A stretch of DNA of 63,963 nucleotides, the filler included, from an uncultured Methanosarcinales archaeon (GTDB taxonomy: Archaea > Nanobdellota > Nanobdellia > Woesearchaeales > CAYZNE01), in the NCBI GenBank assembly GCA_964405295.1. It is 10 parts of 10 records of this genome, joined end to end, with 100 filler letters (N's around TTAATTAATTAA, not from the genome) between each part and the next. Parts side by side here need not be neighbours in the genome. Positions count along the whole stretch, not along the records: positions 29,211 to 35,969 come from CAYONI010000026.1; 9 more parts are not named here. The stretch is one strand, 5' to 3'. Position numbers and translations under genes: made by a program. Shown here one piece after another: positions 7,602 to 38,018 of this stretch (the first letter of the stretch is position 1; each line of letters opens with the position of its first letter). The notes below the pieces were generated by a model. That model had not been told where the DNA came from, ran no database searches, and saw only the letters and a list, made by a program, of their open reading frames with translations.

Positions 7602-7627
7602 TTCCCGGCGAGGCATTTTTCTCTACC

Positions 7628-9085
7628 TTAGATTATGGTTAAAGCGTTTTGCCCGTACACGATGTCCAGAATCTTCTTGGCACGGGTGACGGCAACGTAA
7701 AAGTTCCGGTACTCTGAATCTGGATCGAAGAGTGAATTTTCTACACTGCGTTCGCCCATGCCGTTGAGAACCACCACACGATCAGCTTCCCGGCCTTTGC
7801 TGCCGTGGATTGTTGAAAGATGGATGGTTGGTTCGCAAAAAAGACTATACTTCTCTTCGACGGCTTTGAGATACTTGATGTTCTCGTAGATGTCCATGTA
7901 GTGAGGGCCACGAATGATCTTGTCCCATGGCTTGGTAACGAAGCTATAGTCGTCGGCCTGAATCATCCGTTCGTAGCCCATACAGAAGCGCATCAGGTTC
8001 TTCTTCTCATTACCCTTCAGGAAGGTTCGCCCGACGTTCTTATAGTCTCTTGTTGCCTTAATCAGGGACCGCACCGCATGCGCTACAGGAGAATTGAACA
8101 TACCATACTTCCCAGAATCCACGACGTACGGGAGCTGGTTGTTGATCAGCAGATCTTCGAAGATATTCCTCATAGAGTGATTGCGGTATAGAAACAAAAC
8201 GTCGTCTTCGTGCTCCGGAACAGGGAGCGAATAGGCCGAATCATAGCGACGAACCACCCCAGCTTCATCCTTCGGCTGGTACTTCTTCTCAACACGATTT
8301 TTGATGTATCGCACAATCTCTTCGGCCACAATATGTACGGCACGAGGGATTCGGTGGGACTGCCCCAGAATTTTCTTTGCTGATGTATTCTTTTCTTCGA
8401 AGTTATACATACCCTGCGGATCTGCACCACCCCACACATATATGGACTGGTCGTCGTCACCAGCCACAATCACAGACTTGGCGTCGCTGGTCCACTTCCG
8501 GACCAACGCCCACTGAAGTGGTGAAAGATCCTGTGCTTCATCGATATACCACATGTCAAACTTCGGCTTGATGGTTGTTGGCTTCGTCAGAGCTTCGGTG
8601 AGCATATCAGTAAAGTCGAACTTCCCATATGCTTTCTTGAAGGACTCATACGTCTTCACGAAATGGGAGAACTCCTTGGGGGAGCCATCCCGGTTGGAAC
8701 TGTTGAACGTCGTTAACGGGTCGTCGTGCATGAGAGCTTTGTGCAAAGAATATAGCGACAAAAAGATATCCCCCGTACCTAATATTGTCTGCTCTTCAGG
8801 ATTGCCGCCGGTGATTTCGAAACCGGACATCCTCTCAAACATTTTGTACTCCGGACGATTCATGACCTGATCCCGAGAGAGCCCCAATGACCTGAAGGCC
8901 AGACTGTGGATAGTAGAAATACTAACACCGTCCATCCCTGCCCGGTGCATCATCTCCCGTGCTGCCGACCGGGTGAACGAAATAAAACACAGAGAAAGAT
9001 CACCCCCATAATCCTTCTTGATTCTCTTCAGCAATTCTGTCGTCTTGCCAGTACCAGGTGGCCCATAGATAACCTCTGTATACAC
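7628..9085 (-). CDS. Phage UvrD/Rep-family SF1 helicase
   Basis: GPPGTGKTT, STIHS, IDEAQD, GDDDQSIY, STIHGSKGREA, YVAVTRAK. Confidence 0.92.
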   Translation of the reverse strand: MYTEVIYGPPGTGKTTELLKRIKKDYGGDLSLCFISFTRSAAREMMHRAGMDGVSISTIHSLAFRSLGLSRDQVMNRPEYKMFERMSGFEITGGNPEEQTILGTGDIFLSLYSLHKALMHDDPLTTFNSSNRDGSPKEFSHFVKTYESFKKAYGKFDFTDMLTEALTKPTTIKPKFDMWYIDEAQDLSPLQWALVRKWTSDAKSVIVAGDDDQSIYVWGGADPQGMYNFEEKNTSAKKILGQSHRIPRAVHIVAEEIVRYIKNRVEKKYQPKDEAGVVRRYDSAYSLPVPEHEDDVLFLYRNHSMRNIFEDLLINNQLPYVVDSGKYGMFNSPVAHAVRSLIKATRDYKNVGRTFLKGNEKKNLMRFCMGYERMIQADDYSFVTKPWDKIIRGPHYMDIYENIKYLKAVEEKYSLFCEPTIHLSTIHGSKGREADRVVVLNGMGERSVENSLFDPDSEYRNFYVAVTRAKKILDIVYGQNALTII

Positions 9086-9116
9086 GGTCTCTTCCTTTCT
9101 TTTTTATAATTTAGAC

Positions 9117-9148
9117 AGGAGAGCCGGAACATTGAATCCGGCTCTCCT
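9117..9148. terminator. Strong intergenic hairpin (terminator or processing site)
   Basis: AGGAGAGCCGGA-ACATTGAA-TCCGGCTCTCCT, 12-bp perfect stem; no clear U tract on the coding (-) strand. Confidence 0.45.
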
Positions 9149-9161
9149 TTATGTTAAAGGG

Positions 9162-9932
9162 TTAGTATTCCTTCTGCCCTTCCTTCCCTGCCTCGTCCTC
9201 AAAGTCGTTGTCGAAGCTTCGGTCTGCGCTCGCTGCACCGGACCGGATCATTTCATAGACTTTCTCAGCATGTCGGTACAAGGACTCTGTGACGAAACCA
9301 ATATTGCAAATGTCCAGATTAAAGAACTCCTGCCCCTGTTGATTGGCATCTTCTACACCCAACAGCCGATAAACACGACTGAAGCGATCACCACCATTGA
9401 TCCGCACCAGACTGTTGAACTTTCTGGAGATCTTGAGCTTTGATTTGGACATAGAGATCACAACCTCTTCCGATGTGAAGTCTTCCTTCACAAGCAGACA
9501 AAAGTGTTGATGTGTCAAGACCGCTTCCCACTCTTTCGGGGCTTCAAAGCTGGCGATCTCTATCTGTGCTTCCTGTTCAGTGTGGTATGCGCCGCCGAAT
9601 CCGCCGCCCAAAACCTGCTCTCTCCAAACCAGATACTCTTTGACGAATGCTACCGGCACAATGACCACCTGGGTTCCGTATAGCTCCCGTGTCACTGAAT
9701 TGTAAAGCATCCCCTCGTCTGCTCCTTCGATAAACTGGCTGCTGGCTTTCTTCCGGACCTTCGATAAACTCTGCACGACTTCAATTCTGGGGATGACGAG
9801 GTCGTTCTGGTCTACATCTTCAGAACCCCGATTGCCCATACCCTTTAAAAATTCCGGCATCGTGTTAGATGTTGCCACTTCTTTGTTGTCGCTTTTTGGT
9901 GCTGCTTTTTTATTTGCTTTCTTTGCTATCAT
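9162..9932 (-). CDS. Conserved phage replication protein, probable ssDNA-binding protein
   Basis: DLVIPRIEVVQSLS motif, acidic C-terminal tail with a terminal aromatic residue, located between the helicases. Confidence 0.55.
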   Translation of the reverse strand: MIAKKANKKAAPKSDNKEVATSNTMPEFLKGMGNRGSEDVDQNDLVIPRIEVVQSLSKVRKKASSQFIEGADEGMLYNSVTRELYGTQVVIVPVAFVKEYLVWREQVLGGGFGGAYHTEQEAQIEIASFEAPKEWEAVLTHQHFCLLVKEDFTSEEVVISMSKSKLKISRKFNSLVRINGGDRFSRVYRLLGVEDANQQGQEFFNLDICNIGFVTESLYRHAEKVYEMIRSGAASADRSFDNDFEDEAGKEGQKEY

Positions 9933-9968
9933 TCTCGTTCTCCTTGTTTAATGCTTAATGTTTAGCGT

Positions 9969-10490
9969 TTATTTAGTGATCTGCGCCCGTGTGAACGGGC
10001 TTACGTTGAACAATGTTGCCGGTACTTCTTTTCCTTCCGCTAATACTCCTTTCAAAGTTGCTTTAAGGGTTGAGGAGTTGACCGCTTCTTTGATGATATC
10101 GCCCAACCCCTGTTCGATCAACCATTCGTAGGCTGCTTCCTTCTGTCCTTTTTTAACAGATATGTTATAATCCGACAAAAGATAAATTGTGCCGATTCCA
10201 GCAATCGTCGCTTTCTCCGTGTCCTCTCTCTCGAAGACGGCTGGTACCCGAACATAACGGATAAAATCCATGGTCACTTGAAGTTTTTTCTTGATAACGT
10301 CGGCCATTTCGGTCGTTTCCTGTAACTTCCGCTGCAATGATGCCACCTCCGCAATACTCATGTCCTCGGTCGTGCCCTTCATGTTACCGTCGTCGACGGC
10401 TTTAGCTAAATCCTTTTTAACTTTGGTCAGAGTCTTCAACAGGGCCGAAATGCTCTTTTCTTCCTTTCGTACGATCTTTTTTTCTGTCAT
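9969..10490 (-). CDS. Conserved hypothetical phage protein
   Basis: AYEWL..GLGDIIK..VNSSTLKA motif typical of phage replication modules; RBS present. Confidence 0.65.
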   Translation of the reverse strand: MTEKKIVRKEEKSISALLKTLTKVKKDLAKAVDDGNMKGTTEDMSIAEVASLQRKLQETTEMADVIKKKLQVTMDFIRYVRVPAVFEREDTEKATIAGIGTIYLLSDYNISVKKGQKEAAYEWLIEQGLGDIIKEAVNSSTLKATLKGVLAEGKEVPATLFNVSPFTRAQITK

Positions 10491-10492
10491 AA

Positions 10493-10834
10493 TTATTCTC
10501 CTTTCTCGATATTAAATTGGACGGGTATATATCCCCTGCATAAGTTATCCCACTGCAGCAGCGAAATGTACCCCTTTTTCTTTATTCCCAAATGGAAAGC
10601 GTAACCGATCAGGATCGGGCCACCTGTTAAGAGAAGAAAATCTCTACCAGGGTCAAACTGATCCATATACTCTGCTATGATCTGGATAATCTCTTTGTTG
10701 CACAAACTGTTTTTTATGGGAGAATAGTTTTTATTCGTTATAAACACTATATCCCCGAACCGCTCTGCGTCTAAATAGTTGAGCTTGGAATTCTCTTTTA
10801 TAACATAGACTCTTGGTTCTCTATTATTGTTCAT
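10493..10834 (-). CDS. Conserved hypothetical phage protein
   Basis: AGGAG RBS; AERFGDI...DFLLLTG motif; co-oriented in the operon. Confidence 0.65.
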   Translation of the reverse strand: MNNNREPRVYVIKENSKLNYLDAERFGDIVFITNKNYSPIKNSLCNKEIIQIIAEYMDQFDPGRDFLLLTGGPILIGYAFHLGIKKKGYISLLQWDNLCRGYIPVQFNIEKGE

Positions 10835-10856
10835 TTTCTATCTCCTTTCTGTAACC

Positions 10857-10886
10857 ACTATAACACATGGCCTATAGGGTTGTCAA
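10857..10886 (-). promoter_or_regulatory. Sigma70-type promoter
   Basis: TTGACA-18 nt-TATAGT on the minus strand, extended -10 TG. Confidence 0.65.
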
Positions 10887-12620
10887 TGGGTATTTGTCTT
10901 TTAGTTGTTCTTCTATATAGTCAGACAAATCTTGGTGTTGTGCCAAAGCTTTTCGCACATCTTCGTCCGGTGTTCCTGCCATTATAATGTCGGTGTAGAC
11001 GACTTTGTTTATCGTCCCTTTCCGGTGGTTCCTGTCTTCGCTCTGTGCTCTGTCTATAAATTTGTTTGAGTTCGAGATATAAACGACGTCTGAGCTATGG
11101 ATAAAATCCAGACCGGTACCACCAGTTCCCGGCGTCGCAATAAGATGTGGTACTCTGCCGGTCTCGAAGTCGTCCAATGCTTCTATCCTCTCTTCTCGTG
11201 TCATGGCCCCGTGGAACTTGCCGATAGGAAAGCCCTTTTCGTTTAGTAGCTTGTGCACGGCATGAAGTTCCATTAGATGACAGGTCCAGAAGGTGAAAGG
11301 TTTTTTCGGATTGGACTCCAACAAATAAATAAGTTCCTTGTACTTCGGGTTCTTCTCCGGTGGTATGATCCACTGTCTTTGTCTCTTTCCGTCTTCGTCG
11401 TCGTATGAGATAAATCCTGTCGCTACCTGTCGCAACAGGGCATATATTTGCAAAATCTCTTCGACCACAATTTCGAGATTCTCTCCTGAATCCAGTATGT
11501 CGTTAATGATCACGGCTTTCTTCTTCTTTATATCATTGTATATCTTCTTTTGTTCTGCCGTCATCTGCACAATGATTGGTTCCGTAAAAATCTTTGGTGG
11601 TAGGTCCACCATCTCTTCTTTGGAGACCTGAAAAGTCCACGGTCGGAGCAGCGTCATTAGCTCTTCCACATTGTCGTAGCCAACCACTTCTTTGTTTTCA
11701 AAACCCCCCATCACGGCGTACCTGTGCTTGAAGCTGTAATAGTTACCAATACCAACAATATCCTGACTTAAGAACTGGTACTGCGAATAAAGATCTAAAA
11801 GCCCCGCAGGTGACAGCGTCCCGCTTCCAACGTACCGGTGCGTACACATGCCACCAATGGCTGTAATATTCTTTGTGCGGATGGAGCTTGGCGTCTTTAT
11901 CATATGGGACTCGTCTACAAATATAGCTGTTTTGTTTACCGCAACAAAATCCCAAAGGAACTCAAACGCATTTCCTTTCTGTTCCCCCACACTGAAAGAC
12001 TCGATGCCCATAGAAAGGATCTTCAGGATTTCGGGTTGTGAATCGATAAGGGAACGTGCTTCTCTCTTCTTTGGCTTTGAGTTCAGAATCGGCACTACAG
12101 CTGTCCATCTTTTCGCTTCTAACGGACAGTGCTTTCCTACTTCTTTTATGATCTTGTCAGTAACCGTATTCTTTGTCAGGATGACCATAGCTTCAATCTG
12201 CCCGTCCAAAAACAAAGCCGTCCCGGTCTCTATATATACCTTCGTCTTCCCTGTCCCACGATCCATGGCAAAACAGAAGAAGTTTTTCCCCCAGGATTTG
12301 TTCAAAGCTTCCAATTGCTTCTCCATCGGAAAAACAGTTGGCTTAAATCTATACCATGCCGGGAAAGGAATCTCCCGAACGGCTGTCTTCGCTAAAATCT
12401 TCTCGATAAGGTCGTACACCCGGTCGTCGATCTCGATATTGCTGTCTGGGATGATCGTGCTCCTTACATACTCGGCATTTAGCCTGAGCCCCTGCAAGAA
12501 CCATGCCCCTTTCTTCTTCAAAAATCTTCTGCTTGGTGCATGCTGCACCAACGAATTGAGGTGAAAGGGAATCTCTAACAGAAAATTCTCACATTTAGAA
12601 TCCGTCGTTAAAAAGCCCAT
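10872..12620 (-). CDS. SNF2-like superfamily 2 helicase
   Basis: MDRGTGKT, FVDESH, SGT, GGTGLDF, QSEDRNHRKG. Confidence 0.9.
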   Translation of the reverse strand: MGFLTTDSKCENFLLEIPFHLNSLVQHAPSRRFLKKKGAWFLQGLRLNAEYVRSTIIPDSNIEIDDRVYDLIEKILAKTAVREIPFPAWYRFKPTVFPMEKQLEALNKSWGKNFFCFAMDRGTGKTKVYIETGTALFLDGQIEAMVILTKNTVTDKIIKEVGKHCPLEAKRWTAVVPILNSKPKKREARSLIDSQPEILKILSMGIESFSVGEQKGNAFEFLWDFVAVNKTAIFVDESHMIKTPSSIRTKNITAIGGMCTHRYVGSGTLSPAGLLDLYSQYQFLSQDIVGIGNYYSFKHRYAVMGGFENKEVVGYDNVEELMTLLRPWTFQVSKEEMVDLPPKIFTEPIIVQMTAEQKKIYNDIKKKKAVIINDILDSGENLEIVVEEILQIYALLRQVATGFISYDDEDGKRQRQWIIPPEKNPKYKELIYLLESNPKKPFTFWTCHLMELHAVHKLLNEKGFPIGKFHGAMTREERIEALDDFETGRVPHLIATPGTGGTGLDFIHSSDVVYISNSNKFIDRAQSEDRNHRKGTINKVVYTDIIMAGTPDEDVRKALAQHQDLSDYIEEQLKDKYPLTTL

Positions 12621-12632
12621 CTCTTCTCCTTT

Positions 12633-14180
12633 CTAATATTCTGGTTTAATCTCTATATCCGATGGGTCGTGAACACCGGTCAGATCAAGCGGCACATTCC
12701 ACACCTGTCGTGTAGTGTTACCTATCCTTAAACTTCCGTGTGTAACCCCATGTTTCTTTAAAGCGAACCAGAGATTTGGCCCCTTCAAGTCTTCGGCCCG
12801 ATTCTTCTTCAGAAAGCTTACAAAGTCGGAACCCCTGAAGTAAACGATCTTATCTCCGTTCTTTTCCTGCAGAACCGGTACGCCTCGTAGCAGGAGCTCC
12901 CTTGCTGATGTATCCTTCCCATCAGCATCAAGGTCCGCTCTCTGTAGAAAGAGCATCAATTGCTGCCATACGAGCCCATGCGTTGATGCCTCGTCCGGAG
13001 CGTCTATCACTAATGCCGACTCCATCAGTTTTTGCAGAACCACAACCCAACGTTCGTTCTTCATGGTAGGTATGATCTGTGTCAGCTTGTCGGCTACGGC
13101 TTCACGAACTTTCCGGTGGTCCATCAGCTCCGGTGTCGTGACGTTGACCTCAACACCATCTATATCCAGACCCCACTTGACGGGTTCGGTCATGTATTTT
13201 CTTAGCTGATTAAAATTTGGGTGTTTACCCATGTTTAGCTCTGATTTTTCATCCGGCGTGATACCGAACTTTCGCTCTACGCAGACATAAGAGTTGCACC
13301 GAGAGCGGCACGGTTCTTCTTTGCACTTGTACCTGTATTCTCTCCGTGCCACAGACGCTATGGTTTTCTTCGCTTCGCTATGAGCGAGTGGTGGAGAAAG
13401 GACTCTGGCATTCATGTCGAAGGCTTTGTCTCTCCACGTCTCCGGATATGCCTGTTTCAGGTAGATGCTTAAGTTATAGAGTGCGTTGTTCCTCATACCG
13501 ATTGGTACACCTGAAGAGATCATCCGATGTATGCACGGGGGAGCTCCCTCATGATCCCCCTCGCTCTTTTCCACCAGAAGGGGTGCTGTTATCCTTCTTG
13601 ATTCAGCAACCTCAAGGAAATAATCAAAGGTGATCTTCTTTCCGCCCTCTACGGCATAACGTTCGCTCTTGTCACCACCAAAGTAACACAAATTAATCCA
13701 GTTGCCGTACTGTCGCCCCTCTTTCTCTTTGATCAGCTTGTCCTGCTTTGGGAAGACTTCAGCACCAGAATATCCAAGCTGAACAGCCCACTTGTTCATG
13801 ACTGAACGGACTAAGCTGCAGGACACGGGTTCTGTGCAAAAGAGATAAAGATGTGCGCCGCCGGATTTCGACCGGCATAACGTCAGCGGGAGATCCGCTT
13901 CTGTGATCTCTCTTTCGAGTTCATAAAGATCAATGTTGTCGTCTTCCCCGTGAATGTCGATGTCGATTGCCGCCCAGAGGCATGTATTGTCGTCTAAAAT
14001 CGGTACGAGCCCGAGACCCTTTGTCCCTTTGATGTGCTGTTCGAAAAGATCTTTTGTCACCAACTTCTTGACCGAGAACATCTTCTTATCACCCTTATTC
14101 TTCGGGTCAAACACACCATAGCTTCGTGTGTTTGCCTGAAAAAGACGCATGAATCTCTCTATTCTACCAATCTCTGCCAT
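12633..14180 (-). CDS. Archaeo-eukaryotic primase (PrimPol-like) with PriCT-like Cys-rich domain
   Basis: AEP motifs AIDIDIH, SKSGGAHLYLF, EVFPKQ; PPC...RNNAL...YKC...C...C; RBS AGGAG. Confidence 0.85.
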   Translation of the reverse strand: MAEIGRIERFMRLFQANTRSYGVFDPKNKGDKKMFSVKKLVTKDLFEQHIKGTKGLGLVPILDDNTCLWAAIDIDIHGEDDNIDLYELEREITEADLPLTLCRSKSGGAHLYLFCTEPVSCSLVRSVMNKWAVQLGYSGAEVFPKQDKLIKEKEGRQYGNWINLCYFGGDKSERYAVEGGKKITFDYFLEVAESRRITAPLLVEKSEGDHEGAPPCIHRMISSGVPIGMRNNALYNLSIYLKQAYPETWRDKAFDMNARVLSPPLAHSEAKKTIASVARREYRYKCKEEPCRSRCNSYVCVERKFGITPDEKSELNMGKHPNFNQLRKYMTEPVKWGLDIDGVEVNVTTPELMDHRKVREAVADKLTQIIPTMKNERWVVVLQKLMESALVIDAPDEASTHGLVWQQLMLFLQRADLDADGKDTSARELLLRGVPVLQEKNGDKIVYFRGSDFVSFLKKNRAEDLKGPNLWFALKKHGVTHGSLRIGNTTRQVWNVPLDLTGVHDPSDIEIKPEY

Positions 14181-14218
14181 TTCTTCTCCTTTCTTAATTA
14201 TTGTTCATCACTACAGCC

Positions 14219-14247
14219 AGTATACCACAAGTGTCCGCTCGTGTCAA
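14219..14247 (-). promoter_or_regulatory. Leftward sigma70-type promoter for the replication operon
   Basis: TTGACA-CGAGCGGACACTTGTGG-TATACT (17-nt spacer, extended -10). Confidence 0.8.
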
Positions 14248-14477
14248 CATTTATTTGAGATTGCAGCTTCCTTTTTTATAAAAGACGGAAAGCTGTCCAT
14301 ACAGACGGCTTTCCGGAGATATCACTACATCACTACATAGTGCGTTGATGGCTTAAGGGACGGGCCTTCATTATCAGACACCATGTAGTGACCTTAAGTT
14401 GCTGTAACCACTACACACTGTCTCAAGAGACTATTTTTTCTCTTCTTCTAAAAAAGGTTTGTTGTGTCAAATAGGTA

Positions 14478-14506
14478 TTGACACAAGTAGACGCCTGTGG
14501 TACAAT
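14478..14506 (+). promoter_or_regulatory. Rightward sigma70-type promoter with overlapping palindrome
   Basis: TTGACA-CAAGTAGACGCCTGTGG-TACAAT; 9-bp inverted repeat TTGTGTCAA-7-TTGACACAA (14462-14486) covers the -35. Confidence 0.8.
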
Positions 14507-14683
14507 AGTTCTGAATTAAGTACGGACAGAATAAAAGAAATAATTAAATCAGGGGAGTGAGCTGAGGATAAACAGCGCCGCATTCGTGGAAAGGATAAAG
14601 ACATAGGCCATTGTCTCCTCCTAATAAACTCGGACACCAAAAAGCGGTGCCGGTTATTTGAACGTTAGAAGGGTTTATTAATT

Positions 14684-14899
14684 ATGAATAATTGGCAAAA
14701 AATAAATTACAAGTTTTTCCTTGCAAATGACAATCTTACGGATAGTCCAGAGCTACGCGAGGCATATATGTCGGGGTTTAATTTGGCTGAACATATTAGA
14801 ATATATGGATACCCGGACACCCACAAACCTTCTAACAAATCAATACAGACGGACACAGATACCGAGGCAGGACAAGCGGTGCGCCATAACAGGAGTTAA
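14684..14899 (+). CDS. Small hypothetical phage protein reading through an attC-like sequence
   Basis: ORF downstream of the rightward promoter; its C-terminal PSNKSIQTD is a translated attC-like left half. Confidence 0.45.
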   Translation: MNNWQKINYKFFLANDNLTDSPELREAYMSGFNLAEHIRIYGYPDTHKPSNKSIQTDTDTEAGQAVRHNRS

Positions 14900-14973
14900 A
14901 TTAACAGAATGAAAAGATATCTTGATCAATTAATTTTAAAAAATCACGAATCATGGGTGGATGGTATATTTGA

Positions 14974-21208: not shown

Positions 21209-21262
21209 AAAGGCTAATTTTTCAACAGTCTGTATTGTTGATAAGGGTAAAAACAAGAAATA

Positions 21263-21289
21263 AAAAAAGGTCTCTGTTGAGACCTTTTT
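21263..21289. terminator. Bidirectional intrinsic terminator
   Basis: AAAAAAGGTCTC-TGTT-GAGACCTTTTT between convergent genes. Confidence 0.8.
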
Positions 21290-21321
21290 GGTTGTTAATA
21301 GTACAAATATATTTTGTGACA

Positions 21322-29210: not shown

Positions 29211-29250
29211 CCCTGTCGACCATCACCTCCGTTTAAAAAAGTGATTGGTT

Positions 29251-29314
29251 GATTAGCTGTCTCATCGGCACCGGGAGCTAATCCCCGAATGGACACCCGA
29301 AAGGGCGTTTCGAC
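29251..29314 (-). ncRNA. Type II hammerhead ribozyme with pseudoknot (core variant CCGAUGA)
   Basis: Minus strand: GUC-GAAA-CGCCC-UUUC-GGGUG-UC|-CAUUCGGGGAUUAGCUCCCGGUG-CCGAUGA-GAC-AGCUAAUC. Stems I, II and III form, and the 3' tail AGCUAAUC is complementary to GAUUAGCU at loop I. Confidence 0.8.
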
Positions 29315-29513
29315 TGTGTCCGGTGTATGTGGCGGATCTTGGCCCCCGGTCGGGCTCCCCTCTCACATTCGATTCTGTTCTCACGGCTGTCAGAGTTTCC
29401 CTTAATTGTGCGGTCCCCCCTGCTCGGATCGAATCCCCTGCTATTTGCTGAGGCTGAAATTGTTGGTCTGTCGCATCCACCATCCCCTTGACTCGTCCCT
29501 CAATTTCAACTCC

Positions 29514-29542
29514 ATTATATCATACCAATGGGGGTCTGTCAA
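29514..29542 (-). promoter_or_regulatory. Consensus sigma70 promoter driving the ribozyme-containing leader
   Basis: TTGACA-17 nt-TATAAT with extended -10 TG. Confidence 0.88.
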
Positions 29543-29661
29543 GTATTTTGTTTATAGTACACCAATTGGTACTATGTTTTGTAGTACAATACTATGCTTG
29601 CAAAATACCGTTGGTTAAACACTAATAATTTGTTCTACAATTCTACGGGTTGAACACTGGA

Positions 29662-29731
29662 AATGGCCTTGAGATATCTCAAGGCCATTCAGATATATTT
29701 GACGTACGGTCGGATATATTTGACGTACGGT
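29662..29731. repeat. 28-bp perfect palindrome plus two 19-bp direct repeats
   Basis: AATGGCCTTGAGATATCTCAAGGCCATT (29662-29689); GATATATTTGACGTACGGT at 29692-29710 and 29713-29731. Confidence 0.92.
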
Positions 29732-29853
29732 TGACATACAGTCGGCCCGAGTGGGTTAACCTGCCACTGAGTGGTATTTCACCAGTTCATTTGGTTACTC
29801 CAACACATCCTGTCGGGAACTGATCATCTGTCACTAAGTGGTATTTTGTGGTT

Positions 29854-30222
29854 TTACTTGGGGGTCGGTTCCGGTCTACTGGAAATATCCCGGTTGACAA
29901 TCCGGTCGTCTAAATCCGGCCTGACATCCAATGTGTTGAGAGCTGACAACATGCAAAACATGGCAGCTGCAAGGTGGTGTTTTTCTACCCCGTGCTTCGA
30001 TGCTGCCGGGTCCATATTTTCACCCTTCCAGTAAAATTCCTCGATGTGCCGAAGGGCTGCATCCATCAAAACACTTATTTTGAAGCCCAGTCTCCAACTC
30101 TCCTCCCAATATTTCTTGTTTCCTTCTTCGTATGCTGGTATAAGATATTTTCGCAGCAGGTCCATTGGGAGAAGTGTCATTCGGTCTTTCTTGTCTATCT
30201 CGTTGTTCTTTGGTGCTTCCAT
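29854..30222 (-). CDS. DUF5664 / dATP-dGTP diphosphohydrolase N-terminal-domain-like protein
   Basis: K.RM.LLP...G..KY...SW..G......DAALRH....W.GE..D......HHLAAA pattern. Confidence 0.75.
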   Translation of the reverse strand: MEAPKNNEIDKKDRMTLLPMDLLRKYLIPAYEEGNKKYWEESWRLGFKISVLMDAALRHIEEFYWKGENMDPAASKHGVEKHHLAAAMFCMLSALNTLDVRPDLDDRIVNRDISSRPEPTPK

Positions 30223-30662
30223 TCTTTGTTTGTCTCCTCTTGAATCTTTTCAATCCAGTATGCTTTGTTGTTTGCCTTCTCGCTTCCTATCACGAGACGA
30301 TATTTGGCAAAGTATCTCACTTTATCATCTTTCTCTTCTTCCCATAGAGCAGTATGGTCGAAGAAATACATCCAGTCGAACTCTTTATCCCATACGAGCA
30401 CCCACACTCGGCCAGCCTTTTTCCCCCTGTTGTGTATCCAGTTATATTGTTGTGGTGTCATACTTGGAAGCATTATAGTTTGAAGCTTCATTGGCCCAGT
30501 GACCTTCAGCTCAATCCAACCATGGCCAGCTGGTGTGGTGATGGTGATGTCTGGTATTCCGAGAGCAAGACCCCGTGGTTCTACTCTATCATAAGAGAGA
30601 GTTTGGATCGCCTTTAAAACAGTTTTTACCCGGTTTTTCCACATCCATGCCTCGGGTTTCAT
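30195..30662 (-). CDS. VRR-NUC-like PD-(D/E)xK nuclease / junction resolvase
   Basis: RVE...GIPD...WIELKV...PQQYNW...G.VWVLV. Confidence 0.82.
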   Translation of the reverse strand: MKPEAWMWKNRVKTVLKAIQTLSYDRVEPRGLALGIPDITITTPAGHGWIELKVTGPMKLQTIMLPSMTPQQYNWIHNRGKKAGRVWVLVWDKEFDWMYFFDHTALWEEEKDDKVRYFAKYRLVIGSEKANNKAYWIEKIQEETNKEWKHQRTTR

Positions 30663-31228
30663 ATGATGTCGTCTATATAGGTTTCAGGATCTTCTATCAG
30701 TCGGACCAGTACACCATACACAGCGTCCCAGGCACAACCTGACCAAATCCCCTTTACGGTTTCGATATATTGCTTCATATCTTTATATAGCCTATTATAG
30801 ATCGATACAGCTTGACCGTTCAGCCCTTCCTTTTTCAGATACTTCAAGGCGTCGATATAATCGGCTATTTTTACTACAGCTTTTATGTCACCAGAGATAC
30901 TAATTTCATACTTTTTCAACTTTGGGTCAACCTGTTTTTCGAGTTCATCGAACTTTTCTTTTGCCATCCGTTTTACGGGTGATACGGCGTCACCGATGAT
31001 GACCTCGGGCAGGTCGTGGATCAGAGACCACTGCAGGATATCCAGCTTGTCTTTATCGTCAAAATGTTCTTCACCAATGGCCGCTACGATGTGCAAAGAA
31101 ATCATCGCCACCATGTGGCTGTGCTCGGCCACGGTCTGTTGCCTTGAGGTATGGATGATATGCCACCGCTTCACATGTTGTGCCCGGTAAATGTCGGGCA
31201 AAGAAAGGCTTGTAATGTTAGTCAACAT
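30659..31228 (-). CDS. datZ: HD-domain dATP triphosphohydrolase
   Basis: RAQHVKRWHII, QTVAEHS, HDLPE...GDAVSP, KIAD; AAGGAG RBS before ATG 31228; next to mazZ/purZ. Confidence 0.85.
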   Translation of the reverse strand: MLTNITSLSLPDIYRAQHVKRWHIIHTSRQQTVAEHSHMVAMISLHIVAAIGEEHFDDKDKLDILQWSLIHDLPEVIIGDAVSPVKRMAKEKFDELEKQVDPKLKKYEISISGDIKAVVKIADYIDALKYLKKEGLNGQAVSIYNRLYKDMKQYIETVKGIWSGCAWDAVYGVLVRLIEDPETYIDDII

Positions 31229-31253
31229 ATATTGTTTGCTCCTTATACATATG

Positions 31254-31607
31254 TTAGTCGGCATATCCGTCGTCCTCCTGATCTTCTGGCTTGTAACCAG
31301 ATTCTACGTGGCTCATGATGCCGGTTTTAGAGTTCATGACCCACTTTCGGGCTCTGTTGATCTTCATCTTCTCACGAACAGCAGAAGCAGCGTCGATTCC
31401 CTTCAAATAAGCCAGATCCAGCACCAGAATCAAAATGTCCGCATATTCCATCGGGTCGTTTAGTTCGCTCTTTACGAGCTCCGGAATCTCTTCAAACACC
31501 AGCTTGTTGAATGTGTGTTGTGGTTCCCTGTCGGGCATCACTTTATTGGCCCAGGTAGCAATTTCTTCTTGAAGCTTTTTGATACTCGACAATTTATGTT
31601 TCTGCAT
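31254..31607 (-). CDS. mazZ: MazG-like (d)GTP diphosphohydrolase
   Basis: LQEEIATW..PDR..KL.EEI.EL...DPMEYADILIL.LDLA...KM.INRARKW, closely resembling my recollection of cyanophage S-2L MazZ. Confidence 0.87.
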   Translation of the reverse strand: MQKHKLSSIKKLQEEIATWANKVMPDREPQHTFNKLVFEEIPELVKSELNDPMEYADILILVLDLAYLKGIDAASAVREKMKINRARKWVMNSKTGIMSHVESGYKPEDQEDDGYAD

Positions 31608-31779
31608 CGGTATCCTCCTTTTGTCTCTTTTTCGCTTTATTTCTGTAATACTCCCGATTAGTACTCTTGCTGCACGATTTGCAGATCCAGTCGTACTTCT
31701 TCACTCTGCTTGGGAATATGTTGTCTTCGTCCTTTAACTTCTTTTTGCACAATCTGCAGATCTTCTCTTTGATATCCAT
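31594..31779 (-). CDS. Small basic zinc-finger protein
   Basis: CRLC...CKSC with a basic tail; G-rich RBS. Confidence 0.65.
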   Translation of the reverse strand: MDIKEKICRLCKKKLKDEDNIFPSRVKKYDWICKSCSKSTNREYYRNKAKKRQKEDTDAET

Positions 31780-31788
31780 TTTCCCCCC

Positions 31789-32859
31789 CTACGATTGTTT
31801 TACGACATCCGCACAACTCGGACCGAAGCTCATATATTTGACCGGGTTGATCTTGTCACCGTGAACTGTTCTATACATGTGGTTTATTTTCTCTTTTAGC
31901 TTTTGGGCTTCGTCGTCGTCCAGATAATCACAAAAAGAGAGCCAGATCTCGTCTGGGGCGCAAATTTCGAGAGCTTGCAACGTCTGAACATCAGAGAACG
32001 AAAAAATCCTGCGCTCCAGTTTGGTGACGGTCGTCTTCTCCGGTTTGAACCCTAAGTCCCCCCAATTAAGTTCTGTTTGATCCACATAACCCGGTCCACT
32101 GTAACCAATCATATTTCCTTCTTCGTCATATCGGTTTGCTACCCGAATCGGAAAGGTTCGCATTACACCAATAACCCTATCCACTTTTCGTGCGTTTATC
32201 AGAGTGTCAGACATAATTTGTGCGGGGGAACATTCCCGGCTAGTGCAGTACGGATAAAAACCACTATTTATTCCTAAGCTGAACCCCTGCGCCCCTTCCA
32301 CCACAATTTTATCAGAACAGTCTAAATAAGCCAGCCATTTTCGTGTATCCACTACGTCCACTTTCCTGACGTACCCTTTCAAAATTTGTTCGAGAAATTC
32401 CCTAAATTGCCCTGTTGTGATGTCAACATCCACCTGTCGGCTGAGCTTCCCTATGAGAGCAGCACCGGAACCCTTTTTTGTGCTGCCGATGCCGGTCATG
32501 GTCTTTTCTTCAGTCCTGACGTGATCCTCCTTCAAGAGAGCCGCATTCTCGTGGATAACCAGTACAGCATCTTTTACATATTCATGGCACTCCGTCAACT
32601 CTATGATCAGCCGGTCTACGTCAAGGACCGTACCGGGAGCGACCATGATGGTTTTTAGCTTTGGTGACACAATGCCATTAGCCAGAGCCCGATGTACAAA
32701 CTTTCTTCCTTCGTAATCTACAAAGGTATGTCCAGCATTCGGGCTCCATGCCGTAACCACTGTATCGGGCTCTTCCATCAAAGCCGTATACCCTGCTGCA
32801 GCACCTTTGCCAGTTGATCCGAATTGTAAATCGCAAATAATCGTTACGTTCTTTTTCAT
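31789..32859 (-). CDS. purZ: N6-succino-2-amino-2'-deoxyadenylate synthase
   Basis: Short PurA fold with DLQFGSTGKG (Ser instead of the Asp of PurA GDEGKG), PNAGHT, GSTKKG, EGAQG, YPYCTSR, RTFPIRV, TTVTKLERR; Z-pathway neighbours. Confidence 0.93.
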   Translation of the reverse strand: MKKNVTIICDLQFGSTGKGAAAGYTALMEEPDTVVTAWSPNAGHTFVDYEGRKFVHRALANGIVSPKLKTIMVAPGTVLDVDRLIIELTECHEYVKDAVLVIHENAALLKEDHVRTEEKTMTGIGSTKKGSGAALIGKLSRQVDVDITTGQFREFLEQILKGYVRKVDVVDTRKWLAYLDCSDKIVVEGAQGFSLGINSGFYPYCTSRECSPAQIMSDTLINARKVDRVIGVMRTFPIRVANRYDEEGNMIGYSGPGYVDQTELNWGDLGFKPEKTTVTKLERRIFSFSDVQTLQALEICAPDEIWLSFCDYLDDDEAQKLKEKINHMYRTVHGDKINPVKYMSFGPSCADVVKQS

Positions 32860-32860
32860 C

Positions 32861-33004
32861 CTATACCTCTCCTTTTGTGTAAAATTGTTGTGGATATTTG
32901 TTGCCTTTTAAATCGTTTTCTGCTTGTGGTATTATTCTTAGATTTGTTTCAACATTAAGCCCTGAAACTGTGTCATTCTGTAAAAGGTGATAATGGTCTA
33001 ATAA
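32861..33004 (-). pseudogene. HNH endonuclease C-terminal remnant
   Basis: LLDHYHLLQNDTVSGLNVETNLRIIPQAENDLKGNK...stop; in-frame TGA just upstream and no start codon. Confidence 0.72.
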
Positions 33005-33255
33005 GATATATCATCGTCAAATTTATTTGGGGACAGGGCATCCGCAGGACTCTGCGTCCGCTGGCCTTCTTCAATCGGCGTGACCGACAAAGAAAGGTAT
33101 TTCTCCCCGTCACCTCTCTTGTAATTGGTCCATCCGGACAGGTAGTATTCGGTCCCTTCGATGTCGATCTTTCCCATCACAGTCGGACTCTTGTCGGACT
33201 TCTTGTTGTTGTTGATGAAAAGGACTCCCCGGTTTGTGTTGTCATACTGCGGCAT
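32998..33255 (-). CDS. Conserved small phage protein (DUF736-like, possible SSB)
   Basis: YDNTNRGVLF...GKIDIEG.EY.LSGW...YLSLS, acidic tail FDDDISY. Confidence 0.7.
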   Translation of the reverse strand: MPQYDNTNRGVLFINNNKKSDKSPTVMGKIDIEGTEYYLSGWTNYKRGDGEKYLSLSVTPIEEGQRTQSPADALSPNKFDDDISY

Positions 33256-33311
33256 TCTGTTCTCCTTTCTTTTTCAGTTTATGTTTAATCTTTTCTCCAT
33301 CATCCAGAACC

Positions 33312-33340
33312 ATCCTACCACACCAGACAGCTCTTGTCAA
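33312..33340 (-). promoter_or_regulatory. Sigma70-type promoter upstream of the purZ-mazZ-datZ operon
   Basis: TTGACA-AGAGCTGTCTGGTGTGG-TAGGAT (17 nt, extended -10). Confidence 0.75.
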
Positions 33341-33351
33341 TGGGCGTTTGC

Positions 33352-35220
33352 TTAGTCATGAATCTTCTTTGTGTTTGTGGCTTCCCACCAATTTTTCCCA
33401 GGTTTGCAAAAGTCTATCCTGATTGGTATCCGGAGTTTGGGTGCCCCTGGTCTGGTTTGTACCAATTCTTGTATTTTGTTTAAGGGTGTCTTGGCTCCCT
33501 GTTTTAGCATGGATATGTTTAGTTCGTCATGGATCGATAAGAGAACGTGTGCATCAGGGCATTCAGCCTCTAAATATTCGCAGGTGTTGCAGATGTCCAA
33601 CTTTACAAGGTCGGCAGATGTTCCTTGAAAGATCAGACCGGAAGCTTTGTATGTGAACTCTCCACCGGGAAAGCGAAGATGTCTTCCCATCAAGGTCCTG
33701 ACGTAGCCTCTTGTCTTTGCAACTGATGCGGCATTTCGTGCTAACCCCCTCACGCCCGGAACTGCTTCAAAGTATCGGTCTATCACGTCCTGTGCTTCGG
33801 GTCCCGGCTTTTTAAACTCCCGTATGACACCTTTAAATTCTTTCTCTTCGACGGTGAAAGGAAGGTTCATCTTCTCGGCCAGAGCACCACCGCCCATGTT
33901 GAAGACCATGGCCAAGTTGATTTGTTTAGCATTCGCACCACCGGAGACCTTCGGGTTTCTCGGAAGACCAGTGAGAGCCGCTATCTTCCCGTGAATGTCT
34001 AAATCAGGATCTTCCCGGTAAGCTTGGGTAAGGTCGGGAGCGTTCACATAATGAGCGAAGACCCGAAATTCGTGCTGATCCAGATCGCCGTAGAACCATC
34101 TTTGTCCTTCATCAGGGAGAAATATTGGCCGAACGATGGCAGCAATGTCTTTGTCTCTGCTCGGAATTTGTTGTAAAGCTGGTCTTGTGTAGGACAATCT
34201 GCCTGTGCCGGTCCCTTCATCATTCCCACCGTGACTCGACTTTGTCTGGTTGATGGTCGGGTGCACCCGGTCGCCATGTGCATGTCCCAATATGTGGTTG
34301 TGGATAAATGTGTCACGAGTCTTCATGAGTTTCCTGCAGCGAAGAATCATGGCAGCAGCCGGATGCTGCATCTTTCGGAGTTGGTCGGCTCCAATACTCG
34401 CTTTCCCGGCCTCTGTTTCCGGAAGAAGTGTGCCATCTACAGCTTGCCATTTTCCATCCTTTCCCTTCTTCGGTTCAAAAAGTTTATGGATCGACCCTGA
34501 AGGGTTCGGATTGACCGGAAAGCCAGCCATGTCGTTGATTCCCTTTTGTGTGGACTTGATCTCTTTGGTCAGTCGGTCCGTAGTCCGTGCTGCTTCGTCC
34601 AGATCAACACGAATACCATGTCTCTCCATCCTCAGTCGGTGAGGGAAGAGTCGCATTTCGAGATCCAACACCTGTTGAAGGCCCTGTTTTGCGATCTCTT
34701 CTTCCTGCCACAAATAAAGTTCCAAAGCCACTCGGGTATCCTGCTTGGCGTACGGAGCCACCATAGACTCTGGAGCTCGGTGTAGGTTTTTCATTTGTGC
34801 CGCACGGTTCGCCTTGCCACCAAACATATCGGCTAACTTCTGGTAAATGTCCGTTAGTTTACCTTTATTTTTTCCAAGATATTTCTTTGCGAGAGCGTCC
34901 AGATTGTATTGTAACAAATGTTCATTTATTAAAGCAGCTCGGATCATGGTGCACTGCACTCTTGCTGGGTCGATGTTGATGCTTTTGTTCCAGAGCATGT
35001 GGATATCAAAGCCGATATTCTGGTTGACGATAAGAGGACATTTCGGAACTTCTTCTCTTAACCACGAGAGAACTCTATCATCTGTCCTGATATCAAAATA
35101 ATAGTCATCCGTCATTGTTGAAACGGAGATACCAAAGAGATCTTCGGTTAGCCAGTTGATGCCAGTAGTTTCGGTATCCAGAGCTATGAATGGATGTTCG
35201 CTTATTTTTGGGTAGATCAT
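33352..35220 (-). CDS. dpoZ: Family A DNA polymerase, DpoZ type
   Basis: Exo DTETTG/NIGFD/YAKQD; TGRLS; motif A DLDQHEFR, B KQINLAMVF, C IHDE; ASGLIFQGTSAD; upstream of purZ. Confidence 0.88.
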   Translation of the reverse strand: MIYPKISEHPFIALDTETTGINWLTEDLFGISVSTMTDDYYFDIRTDDRVLSWLREEVPKCPLIVNQNIGFDIHMLWNKSINIDPARVQCTMIRAALINEHLLQYNLDALAKKYLGKNKGKLTDIYQKLADMFGGKANRAAQMKNLHRAPESMVAPYAKQDTRVALELYLWQEEEIAKQGLQQVLDLEMRLFPHRLRMERHGIRVDLDEAARTTDRLTKEIKSTQKGINDMAGFPVNPNPSGSIHKLFEPKKGKDGKWQAVDGTLLPETEAGKASIGADQLRKMQHPAAAMILRCRKLMKTRDTFIHNHILGHAHGDRVHPTINQTKSSHGGNDEGTGTGRLSYTRPALQQIPSRDKDIAAIVRPIFLPDEGQRWFYGDLDQHEFRVFAHYVNAPDLTQAYREDPDLDIHGKIAALTGLPRNPKVSGGANAKQINLAMVFNMGGGALAEKMNLPFTVEEKEFKGVIREFKKPGPEAQDVIDRYFEAVPGVRGLARNAASVAKTRGYVRTLMGRHLRFPGGEFTYKASGLIFQGTSADLVKLDICNTCEYLEAECPDAHVLLSIHDELNISMLKQGAKTPLNKIQELVQTRPGAPKLRIPIRIDFCKPGKNWWEATNTKKIHD

Positions 35221-35243
35221 GGTACTCCTTTGTTATTATAATG

Positions 35244-35513
35244 TTAACACCCATCTATTATTGCAAGATTTCTTCTGTAACCACAAGATGAGCAGGTAAA
35301 CATATAGCACCCAGCTCCGTATGCTGACCCCATACTACATTCGCCTTCGTCCTGTACCTGTGTCCGTTCTAGTGAGTTTTTGAATATGATTTTTTCGTCT
35401 GTAATATATTTCTGTCCATCCAGATTATCCCATGCCCCGTTCTCTCTGCAGTCATCACAGCACGGAATAATATCAATTTTGAATAATGGACAATTACATT
35501 TCTTGCATTTCAT
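35244..35513 (-). CDS. Cys-rich small phage protein
   Basis: CKKC, CCDDC, CSSC; AGGAG RBS. Confidence 0.6.
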   Translation of the reverse strand: MKCKKCNCPLFKIDIIPCCDDCRENGAWDNLDGQKYITDEKIIFKNSLERTQVQDEGECSMGSAYGAGCYMFTCSSCGYRRNLAIIDGC

Positions 35514-35877
35514 TCCAGTTCTCCTTTCGCAGTTTCTGAACCATAAACTCTGCCAATTTTTTATCGCTTTTGACTACGAATTTCCCCTCCCAGAAGAAGT
35601 CTCGAATGTATTGTTTATTTCTTAAGTCATATTTTGGATAAAATACCCGTTTAATGTGTGGACCTATTAATTTTTCAGGTGGTTCAATTTCAATGTTATT
35701 CAGGATAAAAAATTCAGGATTTTCTATTACGTTGGAATCGGTAATCATTACTTCAAAGTAACTTGCTCCCCTTTCCATCTTTTCGATAAAGGTAAATTCA
35801 TCTTGGATAATTTTTTCCGCTTGCCTTTTTGTCAGGTGTTTTTTTATTACTACATTCACAATTGGTTTCCAGTTCAT
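35494..35877 (-). CDS. Hypothetical phage protein
   Basis: AAGGAG RBS; co-oriented and overlapping the next gene. Confidence 0.6.
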   Translation of the reverse strand: MNWKPIVNVVIKKHLTKRQAEKIIQDEFTFIEKMERGASYFEVMITDSNVIENPEFFILNNIEIEPPEKLIGPHIKRVFYPKYDLRNKQYIRDFFWEGKFVVKSDKKLAEFMVQKLRKENWNEMQEM

Positions 35878-35969
35878 TTAAGTTCTCCTTTTCTTATTTT
35901 AATAATGATTTCTACTACCAAAGGCGCCATAAACAACAGCCCAACCAGTTTTGAAAAGATGAATAACGA

Positions 35970-36215: not shown

Positions 36216-38018
36216 ATGAAATTTAAAGAAAAAGCAAATCTAATTTGGAACGTTGCAGATTTACTGCGCGGTGATTATAAACAATCTGATTATGGAAAAG
36301 TGATTTTACCTCTAACTGTTTTAAGAAGACTTGATTGTGTTCTAACACCAACAAAACAAACGGTTTTAGACTATCTGACAAAAATAAAATCTTCAGCAAC
36401 AGACAGCACAATTGATTTAATCCTAAATAACAAAGCAAAACAAAACTTTCATAACCGCAGTAAATATGATTTTGAAAAGCTTAAAGATGACCCAGATAAT
36501 ATTGCTGCAAATCTAAGAAATTATATTGCAGGTTTTTCTAGCAGTGCCAGAGAAATAATTGAATACTTTAATTTTGACGACCAAATTACACGAATGGATA
36601 ATCCACAAGCTGACATTCTTTTTCAAGTTGTAACAAAATTTGCAGAAATTGATCTATCCGATATGCAAAGTATGGAGATGGGTTATGTTTTCGAGGAATT
36701 GATTCGTCGTTTTTCTGAGCAATCTAATGAAACCGCCGGAGAGCATTTTACTCCAAGAGAAGTTATAAAGCTAATGGTTAATCTTCTTTTTATTGCTGAT
36801 AATGAAATACTAACAAAAGAGGGAATTGTAAAAACACTTTATGATCCAGCTTGCGGAACTGGCGGTATGCTTTCTGTTGCCGAAAAGCATCTAAATGAAT
36901 TTAACCACAAAGCAAAACTTGAAGTTTTTGGGCAGGAAATAAATCCTGAATCTTATGCAATTTGTAAATCTGATATGCTGATAAAATCTCAAAATCCATC
37001 TAATATAAAATATGGAAACACATTTACTATTGATGGTCTGGAAGATGAACAATTTGATTATATGCTTTCCAATCCACCCTTTGGTGTAGATTGGAAAAAA
37101 GCTAGAACTATAATTAAAAGTGAACACGATAATCGTGGATTTTCTGGTCGCTTTGGTGCTGGTTTACCAAGAATTAATGATGGTGCGCTACTTTTCTTAC
37201 AACATATGCTTTCTAAAATGAAACCAACTGGAACTAGAATTGGTATTGTGTTTAATGGTTCTCCACTTTTTACAGGTCAAGCTGGAAGCGGTGAAAGTGA
37301 TATTAGAAAATGGGTAATTGAAAATGATTGGCTGGAAGCAATTATTGCTCTTCCTGATCAACTTTTCTATAATACTGGAATTTCCACTTACATCTGGATT
37401 GTGAATAACCACAAAGTTGATGAGCGAAAAGGAAAAATCCAATTAATAAATGCAACAGGCGCAAAAGATGATGAACTGCTTGCAGAAGGTAAAATTGATT
37501 TTAATAGATTCTACGAAAAAATGACTCGAAGCCTTGGTAATAAAAGAAAGAAAATACCAGAAAATGGCACAGATAAAGGCATTGGCTTGATTACTAAGCT
37601 TTACGGTGATTTTGAAGATAATGAATTTGTGAAAATCTTCCCGAATGAATATTTCGGTTACCAAAGAATAACAGTTGAACAACCACAAAAAAATGAGAAC
37701 AGTGAAATTATAACTGATAAAAAAGGAAAAACAAAAGCTGATACCTCATTGCGAGATTACGAAAATATTCCGTTCTTACGAAAGCAGAAAGATGGTAAAT
37801 TAGCAGAACAAACCATTGCAGAATATTTCCAAAGAGAGGTTACACCACATTTGCCTGAAGCCTGGATTGATGAAAGTAAAACCAAAATTGGTTATGAAAT
37901 AAATTTCACCAAATATTTCTATGAATTCAAAATACTTCGCTCTCTTGATGAAATAAAAGCTGATATTTTGTCTCTTGAAAAAGAAACTTCCGAACTTGAA
38001 AAAGGGATTTTGCTGTAA
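36216..38018 (+). CDS. hsdM: Type I R-M methyltransferase subunit
   Basis: GEHFTPREVI, YDPACGTGGM, SNPPFG. Confidence 0.96.
   Translation: MKFKEKANLIWNVADLLRGDYKQSDYGKVILPLTVLRRLDCVLTPTKQTVLDYLTKIKSSATDSTIDLILNNKAKQNFHNRSKYDFEKLKDDPDNIAANLRNYIAGFSSSAREIIEYFNFDDQITRMDNPQADILFQVVTKFAEIDLSDMQSMEMGYVFEELIRRFSEQSNETAGEHFTPREVIKLMVNLLFIADNEILTKEGIVKTLYDPACGTGGMLSVAEKHLNEFNHKAKLEVFGQEINPESYAICKSDMLIKSQNPSNIKYGNTFTIDGLEDEQFDYMLSNPPFGVDWKKARTIIKSEHDNRGFSGRFGAGLPRINDGALLFLQHMLSKMKPTGTRIGIVFNGSPLFTGQAGSGESDIRKWVIENDWLEAIIALPDQLFYNTGISTYIWIVNNHKVDERKGKIQLINATGAKDDELLAEGKIDFNRFYEKMTRSLGNKRKKIPENGTDKGIGLITKLYGDFEDNEFVKIFPNEYFGYQRITVEQPQKNENSEIITDKKGKTKADTSLRDYENIPFLRKQKDGKLAEQTIAEYFQREVTPHLPEAWIDESKTKIGYEINFTKYFYEFKILRSLDEIKADILSLEKETSELEKGILL

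Follow-up and report, generated by a model that had tools for sequence, protein, structure and literature searches.

We have analysed a 63,963-nucleotide stretch of DNA (the window) from the bin GCA_964405295.1, in which mutually unrelated contigs stand side by side with N spacers between them. A gene set for synthesis of DNA with 2-aminoadenine (Z) occupies most of one of them, contig C26 (window positions 29211-35969; 6,759 bp; guanine-cytosine (GC) fraction 0.449). Its Z synthase, PurZ, carries guanine-type residues in the pocket for the phosphate donor, where the cultured PurZ enzymes checked carry adenine-type ones. C26 has ten open reading frames (ORFs), all on the minus strand: two small unknowns, dpoZ, ssb, purZ, a 61-aa zinc-finger ORF, mazZ, datZ, a nuclease-like gene and a DUF5664 gene. 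Along the window, the features are as follows.

29662..29689, no strand: perfect 28-nt palindrome, non-coding, after the operon; a putative terminator or binding site
29854..30222, minus strand: stand-alone DUF5664 dATP/dGTP diphosphohydrolase, 122 aa (PF18909, 55.3 against a cut-off of 27)
30195..30662, minus strand: Holliday-junction-resolvase-like nuclease, 155 aa (PHROG 2165, E 5e-17; atlas leads Hjc/RecU)
30659..31264, minus strand: datZ, HD-domain dATP triphosphohydrolase, 201 aa, whose true start may be Met13 (PHROG 7076, E 5e-31; best PDB match DatZ 6ZPA, E 6e-15)
31254..31607, minus strand: mazZ, unfused (d)GTP diphosphohydrolase of the MazZ-1/DUF550 type, 117 aa (PF04447, 35.9 against a cut-off of 23; 7ODY, E 4.5e-22)
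31594..31779, minus strand: 61-aa CxxC...CxxC zinc-finger ORF, overlapping the mazZ start (45-54% identity in loci L013, L014 and L055)
31789..32859, minus strand: purZ, 356 aa (NF038379, 332.8 against a cut-off of 300; alignments with 6FM1 and 7ODX)
31924..31938, minus strand: codons of the donor-base motif S308-F309-C310-D311-Y312 within purZ (unchanged in locus L059 and in the contigs of runs X1 and X2)
32998..33255, minus strand: ssb, 85 aa (PHROG 7364, E 7e-18), between the polymerase gene and purZ as in phages SH-Ab 15497 and PMBT28
33352..35220, minus strand: dpoZ, phiVC8-clade family A polymerase with a 3'-5' exonuclease domain, 622 aa (NF038380, 854.4 against a cut-off of 500)
35244..35877, minus strand: two small upstream ORFs of 127 and 89 aa in a variable stretch (no family above cut-off)

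All module frames are intact with ribosome sites, mazZ having its own (GGAGGA), and datZ, mazZ and purZ are clustered together with dpoZ, completing the gene set of a Z-genome phage. The earlier note on this DNA had placed dpoZ, purZ, mazZ and datZ at 29854-35220 in one orientation, and all four do lie within this span on the minus strand. The signatures it had quoted were found in the translations, at residues 14-19 (GSTGKG) and 276-281 (TTVTKL) of PurZ and at residues 33-37 (RWHII) and 92-96 (DAVSP) of DatZ. Because PurZ and DpoZ score above the NCBIfam cut-offs and the published substrate residues are kept in all four enzymes, its reading of the pathway stands. DpoZ (best PDB match 7PBK, E 1e-138; 29.7 against a cut-off of 350 with the Wayne-type model NF038381) has R421, L436, F440 and G528 aligned with R440, L455, F459 and G548 of phiVC8, the signature residues of that clade in excerpts of PMC8599892, according to which no single residue accounts for the preference for Z. 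In MazZ, E39, E40, E43, E54, D57, I60, D64, R87 and W89 align with E34, E35, E38, E50, D53, I56, D60, R83 and W85 of S-2L; when aligned to 7ODY, the four acidic metal ligands and the guanine determinants I60, D64 and R87 are kept, corresponding to the metal ligands and the determinants I56, D60 and R83 described for S-2L MazZ in excerpts of PMC8342488. DatZ W34 and I36 align with W20 and I22 of S-2L, named as specificity residues in an excerpt of bioRxiv 2025.10.22.683976, and H48, H83, D84 and D92 are also aligned to 6ZPA. The Z module is real and its pathway is already known; the new element is the donor pocket of PurZ.

On the acceptor side, this PurZ is an ordinary member of its family. 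Its predicted model matches phiVC8 PurZ best (template-modelling (TM) score 0.87), and the phiVC8 and S-2L enzymes (6FM1, 7ODX) share with it the fold (TM 0.84-0.87), the catalytic serine, the dGMP-site residues and the Phe/Tyr stacking pair. The dGMP-site residues F13, S15, V240 and T279 align with Y21, S23, V241 and T276 of S-2L and with F12, S14, V236 and T265 of phiVC8. Compared with cellular PurA (E. coli and the archaeal type), S15 occupies the position of the catalytic Asp13 and Lys331 is replaced by Phe; the five PurA models that hit the protein gave 39-141 bits, under every cut-off (368-700).

On the donor side, residues A20, S308, F309, D311, Y312 and S344 form a guanine-type pocket. 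The adenine-reading pocket N-F-x-N/Q is absent from the window's PurZ, which keeps the Phe and the Tyr and has lost both amides: N305, Q308 and Gly333 of S-2L are replaced by Ser308, Asp311 and Ser344, and the adenine readers N294 and N297 of phiVC8 by the same Ser and Asp. In excerpts of PMC8342488, N305 and Q308 of S-2L PurZ recognise adenine by its 6-amino group and keep out a 2-amino group. By contrast with these enzymes, cellular PurA has a donor pocket like that of the window's PurZ, S308, D311 and S344 aligning with T330, D333 and S414 of the E. coli enzyme (numbering without the first Met). By the title of Kang's work of 1994, D333N reportedly converts PurA from GTP to XTP, and S414 presumably acts at the guanine. 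The Ser/Thr..Asp pair was present in 4/4 PurA and 4/4 PurZ0 checked. The actinophage PurZ0 enzymes (Archimedes 7VF6, Ghobes, Glenn and Spocter; motifs S-M-A-D, S-F-A-D, T-M-L-D and T-M-V-D, with S-F-A-D in Ghobes) also share the catalytic serine; they differ from the window's PurZ in forming a separate clade, at about 27-33% identity. Tong's 2023 study, which defined PurZ0, is said to have found that it uses GTP. Among cultured PurZ, all 13 checked (from 60 records listed of 213 matched) have N-F-x-N/Q, and all 13 have Gly at the position of S344. Among 120 database homologues, the window's PurZ and its nine nearest (59-68% identity) read S-F-C-D-Y, and the remaining 110 have N or Q at 311. 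Since S308, D311 and S344 match GTP-using PurA, and the Ser/Asp pair matches the PurZ0 of Ghobes, we consider from these residues that PurZ most likely uses GTP or dGTP as phosphate donor. The energy step of the pathway would then probably differ from the textbook one, because PurZ departs from the ATP-type donor pocket.

The pocket sequence is not an assembly error, because L059, an independent assembly, matches the full 6,759 bases of C26 at 99.87% identity and encodes the same PurZ, and because the contigs of two marine runs, X1 and X2 (one of them possibly the source of the DNA), contain no alternative letter at the pocket codons.

For the position of PurZ in the family, we combined 269 proteins with 45 locus translations and 15 references, with sampling centred on the window's PurZ as the query. 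Lengths of 300-480 aa were kept (intein-bearing, fused and short forms were dropped), five duplicate or partial loci were removed, and the set was thinned to below 70% identity with nine members of the window's group retained, giving 214 rows, 206 of them in the PurZ clade. In a FastTree tree without the motif columns, the S-F-C-D group is nested among Asn-type enzymes near SH-Ab 15497 and PMBT28. IQ-TREE (LG+G4, 45 rows chosen from the 214) gave support of 95/91 for the S-F-C-D group, 97/94 for this group with an Asn-type sister, and 98/95 for the enclosing clade with SH-Ab 15497 and PMBT28. A phylogeny against cultured PurZ had been proposed in the earlier note; it places the window's PurZ inside the PurZ clade with these two phages. 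The candidate assignment of the window's PurZ as a PurZ0 was rejected, forced grouping with PurZ0 having an approximately unbiased p value (p-AU) of 0.0006. Because the group nests among Asn-type enzymes and the PurZ0 grouping is rejected, the Asp pocket of the window's group would by parsimony mean a reversal from an Asn-type ancestor and not retention. This direction of change is arguable solely for well-nested groups such as the window's.

The same exchange recurs across the PurZ clade. Asp occupies position 311 in 40 of the 206 rows, 31 of which are outside the window's group, and the FastTree tree has at least 18 changes of state at this position. Other positions of the pocket go with it: Ser or Thr at 308 is found in 37/40 Asp rows and 2/166 other rows, Gly at 344 in 156/166 Asn/Gln rows and 5/40 Asp rows, and Leu at 20 in 144/166 Asn/Gln rows and 1/40 Asp rows. 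Across 12 independent pairs taken on starred branches, a change at 311 is matched about nine times by each of positions 308, 344 and 20 and is hardly ever opposed (median sign-test p 0.004 for each), whereas the control positions 310 and 282 do not follow it (p 0.22 and 1). By corrected mutual information, in which kinship is unadjusted, 308-344 comes 6th and 308-311 comes 8th among 46,360 pairs. The Asp rows are not PurA, because the catalytic Ser15 is kept in all 40. Furthermore, at least one unrelated T-F-C-D enzyme, that of locus L045, lies within a full dpoZ-purZ-mazZ-datZ cluster. We give about an even chance to a broader view, in which the donor is set by a two-state switch of some four coupled positions that flipped many times in the PurZ clade, GTP-type enzymes make up about a fifth of the environmental PurZ in this sample, some of them in phages with full DpoZ, DatZ and MazZ sets, and the window phage is a clean recent reversal beside characterised ATP-type enzymes. 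The literature searched, outside which stand Tong 2023 (which could mention them), Zhou, Sleiman and Pezo 2021, and the bioRxiv supplements, gave no description of Asp-type enzymes within the PurZ clade.

Among PurZ homologues that depart from the common length, P0121 and P0229 (733-743 aa; also P0258 and P0259 by length) contain a LAGLIDADG intein, P0004, from the S-F-C-D group, has PurZ fused to MazZ, and P0124 has an HNH domain in front. Of ten nucleotide-pattern matches outside the clade, three (L056, L060 and L061) were set aside as members of a distant T-F-C-D lineage that had matched on another reading; no PurZ was present in L057 or L058. In L056, as in L060 and L061, a PurZ-like gene with the catalytic Ser and T-F-C-D lies beside ThyX, a family B (DNA_pol_B_2) polymerase, a small ATPase and short beta-type ORFs; no match to DpoZ, MazZ or DatZ was found within the 12,952 bases of L056, which is possibly a tailless virus with a Z-type synthase.

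L059 joins C26 to another contig of the window, C23, over a 2,187-base gap.

7602..14973, minus strand: C23, upstream part of the same phage operon, with a primase, an SNF2 helicase, three genes like Pam3 gp32-34 and a UvrD helicase (L059 bridge; order as in SH-Ab 15497, PMBT28, L013 and L014)

Combined, C23 and C26 have the gene order of SH-Ab 15497 and PMBT28, namely primase, SNF2, small genes, UvrD, dpoZ, ssb, purZ, mazZ, datZ and nuclease. Identity between these phages and the window phage is 56% for DpoZ, 48-49% for PurZ, which is of the same clade, and 51-54% for the primase. On the one hand, the operons are thus alike; on the other hand, the two cultured phages have N-F-x-N with Gly and Leu in the donor pocket in contrast to S-F-C-D with S344 and A20, and in the window phage MazZ is unfused, DUF5664 is separate at the operon end and the zinc-finger ORF is a gene of its own. 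The MazZ-1 and DatZ determinants are as in S-2L, although S-2L is without DpoZ, and phiVC8, unlike the window phage, has MazZ-2. The best explanation is that these genes make up one operon, for replication and Z synthesis, in a tailed phage of the SH-Ab 15497/PMBT28 type whose DNA was accidentally binned with an archaeal genome. A third contig of the bin, C35, is likely the next piece of the same phage. It carries a terminase like that of L014, exonuclease-like and small genes and a homologue of a protein that relatives encode after the Z cluster, no other contig comes as near to C26 in word use (0.86), and it has a 39-nt motif in common with the region upstream of the primase (window 14385-14423, C23 6784-6822).

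Several points weigh against GTP or dGTP as the donor. The pair that stacks on the adenine ring, F309 and Y312, is retained, and adenine N6 could still donate a bond to an oxygen of the Asp, which leaves use of ATP possible. The tree on which the 18 changes were counted came from FastTree and has many weak forks, and the positions tested were picked after the data were seen. S-2L MazZ hydrolyses GTP besides dGTP in excerpts of PMC8342488, and MazZ would therefore compete with a GTP-using PurZ; in excerpts of PMC12884076, the sentence on donor preference orders ATP and GTP opposite to its own introduction. The module may be an ordinary one whose PurZ still takes ATP/dATP, or either purine triphosphate, with Ser/Asp as an alternative build of the same site. 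P347 and the backbone of G346 are, like the stacking pair, as in ATP-type PurZ, the partners DatZ, MazZ-1 and phiVC8-clade DpoZ are those of ATP-type phages, and the co-variation may also be compensation that preserves one function. Set against this, the letters of PurA and PurZ0 are recreated at three separate positions, repeatedly, in separate lineages, and the amide said in excerpts of PMC8342488 to exclude guanine is removed. We regard continued use of ATP, or use of both, as the main alternative, of rather low probability. The Asp pocket may instead be tuned to the 2-amino group of Z, with dZTP as donor or as an end-product inhibitor that curbs the consumption of dGTP. Carboxylates are able to bind diamino heterocycles, and the Asn/Gln amide is described in the same excerpts as excluding Z as well as G, so that its removal would admit both. 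However, Ser308 and Ser344 match the guanine-binding PurA, which never meets Z, and we consider a pocket for dZTP very unlikely.

Two further alternatives concern the genome and not the donor. The substitution by Z could be partial, or the module decaying, in a genome that retains much adenine. A homologue of a D12-class methyltransferase, an enzyme that normally needs adenine, occurs in three of the four distinct S-F-C-D phages with context (L013, L014 and L055). The D12-class N6-adenine methyltransferase gene lies between mazZ and datZ at L013:11560-12288 and L014:11817-12533 (also in L054; PF02086 above cut-off), and homologues stand elsewhere in the operon at L055:14602-14955 and, in an Asn-type locus, at L039:4525-5178. 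Such an enzyme in a Z genome could methylate Z, or could signal incomplete substitution; it was not found in the bin (G000) or in L059. The intact frames, and the DatZ W/I and DpoZ L/F/G signatures kept in the window, L013, L014 and L055, speak against decay, and we consider partial substitution or decay very unlikely. Lastly, the Z genes could belong to the archaeon of the bin, as part of its chromosome, a provirus or its virus, as they are filed in an assembly scored 96.78% complete and 0.36% contaminated. The main contigs of this 1.27-Mb bin, in which the contig that adjoins C26 in the window has an archaeal large-subunit ribosomal RNA, have a GC fraction of about 0.30, against 0.449 in C26, and the bin is rich in foreign contigs. 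Moreover, cultured relatives (among the matches listed) infect bacteria, the bin has a separate PurA-like gene of its own on C3, and C23 and C26 have no overlap and no short or spacer-like match to the contigs of the bin, save the 39-nt motif in the phage contig C35. A CRISPR-array scan of the bin gave one doubtful repeat, on C2, the IMG/VR single-sequence scan gave 0 related sequences among 15 candidates, and searches of genome contigs gave 0 stretches with the motif pattern and 0 relatives among 78 candidates in the alignment scan, with no named host or prophage. An archaeal origin of the Z genes is highly improbable.

A Z-genome phage whose PurZ uses GTP or dGTP is, taken as a whole and from the sequences compared, the reading that we moderately favour. 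From family membership and kept residues, MazZ would make dGMP from dGTP, and PurZ would join aspartate to this dGMP with energy from GTP or dGTP. Host PurB and kinases would complete dZTP, DatZ, aided by the DUF5664 hydrolase, would clear dATP, and DpoZ would place Z opposite T. The PurZ of the window would have reverted from an ATP-type ancestor and lost the side role of consuming dATP. Z is very probably present in the virion DNA, a point that the earlier note, too, had put as inferred. In excerpts of PMC12884076, Z synthases fall into two kinds, PurZ and PurZ0, that differ in donor and in helper genes, and PurZ0 phages use DutZ/DmtZ and a Wayne-type DpoZ, not DatZ, MazZ-1 and a phiVC8-type DpoZ. 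As companions of PurZ0, no dUTPase or NDT domain was found among the 16 ORFs scanned of this incomplete phage genome. A guanine-type pocket in the PurZ lineage within a complete DatZ/MazZ/DpoZ cluster breaks this pairing of donor and helpers. ATP/dATP use is described in an excerpt of bioRxiv 2025.10.22.683976 as an adaptation to Z genomes that helps to drain dATP. On the broader view given even odds above, the change of phosphate donor would not be a one-way step from GTP (PurA, PurZ0) to ATP/dATP (PurZ), and a GTP-type class absent from the cultured PurZ checked would exist. If GTP or dGTP is the donor, the finding would represent a natural, repeated ATP-to-GTP specificity switch in one enzyme family, and would let engineered Z-DNA synthesis draw on either donor. 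If ATP is used instead, the window phage is one more environmental member of a known pathway.

The earlier note had described an uncultured environmental member with unusual extras. The former agrees with the nearest cultured PurZ being 49% identical (among the matches listed, 60 of 213). Most of the latter are common in phages of this group: ssb and the nuclease after datZ are ordinary in phages of the SH-Ab 15497/PMBT28 type (homologues of the nuclease directly follow datZ in SH-Ab 15497, PMBT28, L013, L014 and L055), and DUF5664 occurs in them fused to MazZ. Here DUF5664 is stand-alone and is 31% identical, across 74 aa, to the N-terminal domain of the fusion in SH-Ab 15497. The DUF5664-family enzyme of Wayne hydrolyses dATP about 10 times faster than dGTP in excerpts of PMC12884076. 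A stand-alone DUF5664 that compensates for a PurZ no longer using dATP was proposed and rejected; there is no link between DUF5664 and the pocket, because DUF5664 occurs in half of the S-F-C-D phages (2/4) and also in Asn-type phages.

The avoidance of four-base palindromes is uninformative on Z, because known Z-cluster phages disagree among themselves: GC-only and A-containing sites stand at 0.84 and 0.89 of expectation in the window phage, 0.67 and 1.03 in SH-Ab 15497, and 1.01 and 0.97 in PMBT28. In C23, L059 and C35 together, CGCG was seen 5 times against 22.6 expected and CTAG 3 times against 23.1, and neither is depleted in L013 or L014; a trace of host restriction systems is a possible explanation.

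The zinc-finger ORF had no Pfam match above cut-off and no PHROG, and its nearest atlas clusters are unnamed viral proteins. Its homologues overlap MazZ in another reading frame, at the open linker or the N-terminal extension (L002, L004, L078, L013, L014, L015 and L018); in SH-Ab 15497 (L002:13541-13642) and PMBT28 (L004:11415-11543), they are within the annotated DUF5664-DUF550 fusion and are themselves unannotated. From these frames, the stretch looks like a conserved dual-coded region, split into separate genes in the window.

The bin has many foreign contigs, labelled here from their translations. In the window, these include bacterial operons (for example, 15074-22113 and 48819-55056), a type I restriction-modification system (36216-42249), another phage fragment (55157-61075) and integrases (61176-63963). 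At the upstream end of the Z operon, 186 bases between 35334 and 35521 are missing from a contig of run X2. At the other end, the non-coding stretch 29211-29853 also has a 19-nt direct repeat (29761 and 29828) and a short tandem repeat near 29690-29730, and C26 and the contigs of both marine runs all stop within about 30 bases of 29211.

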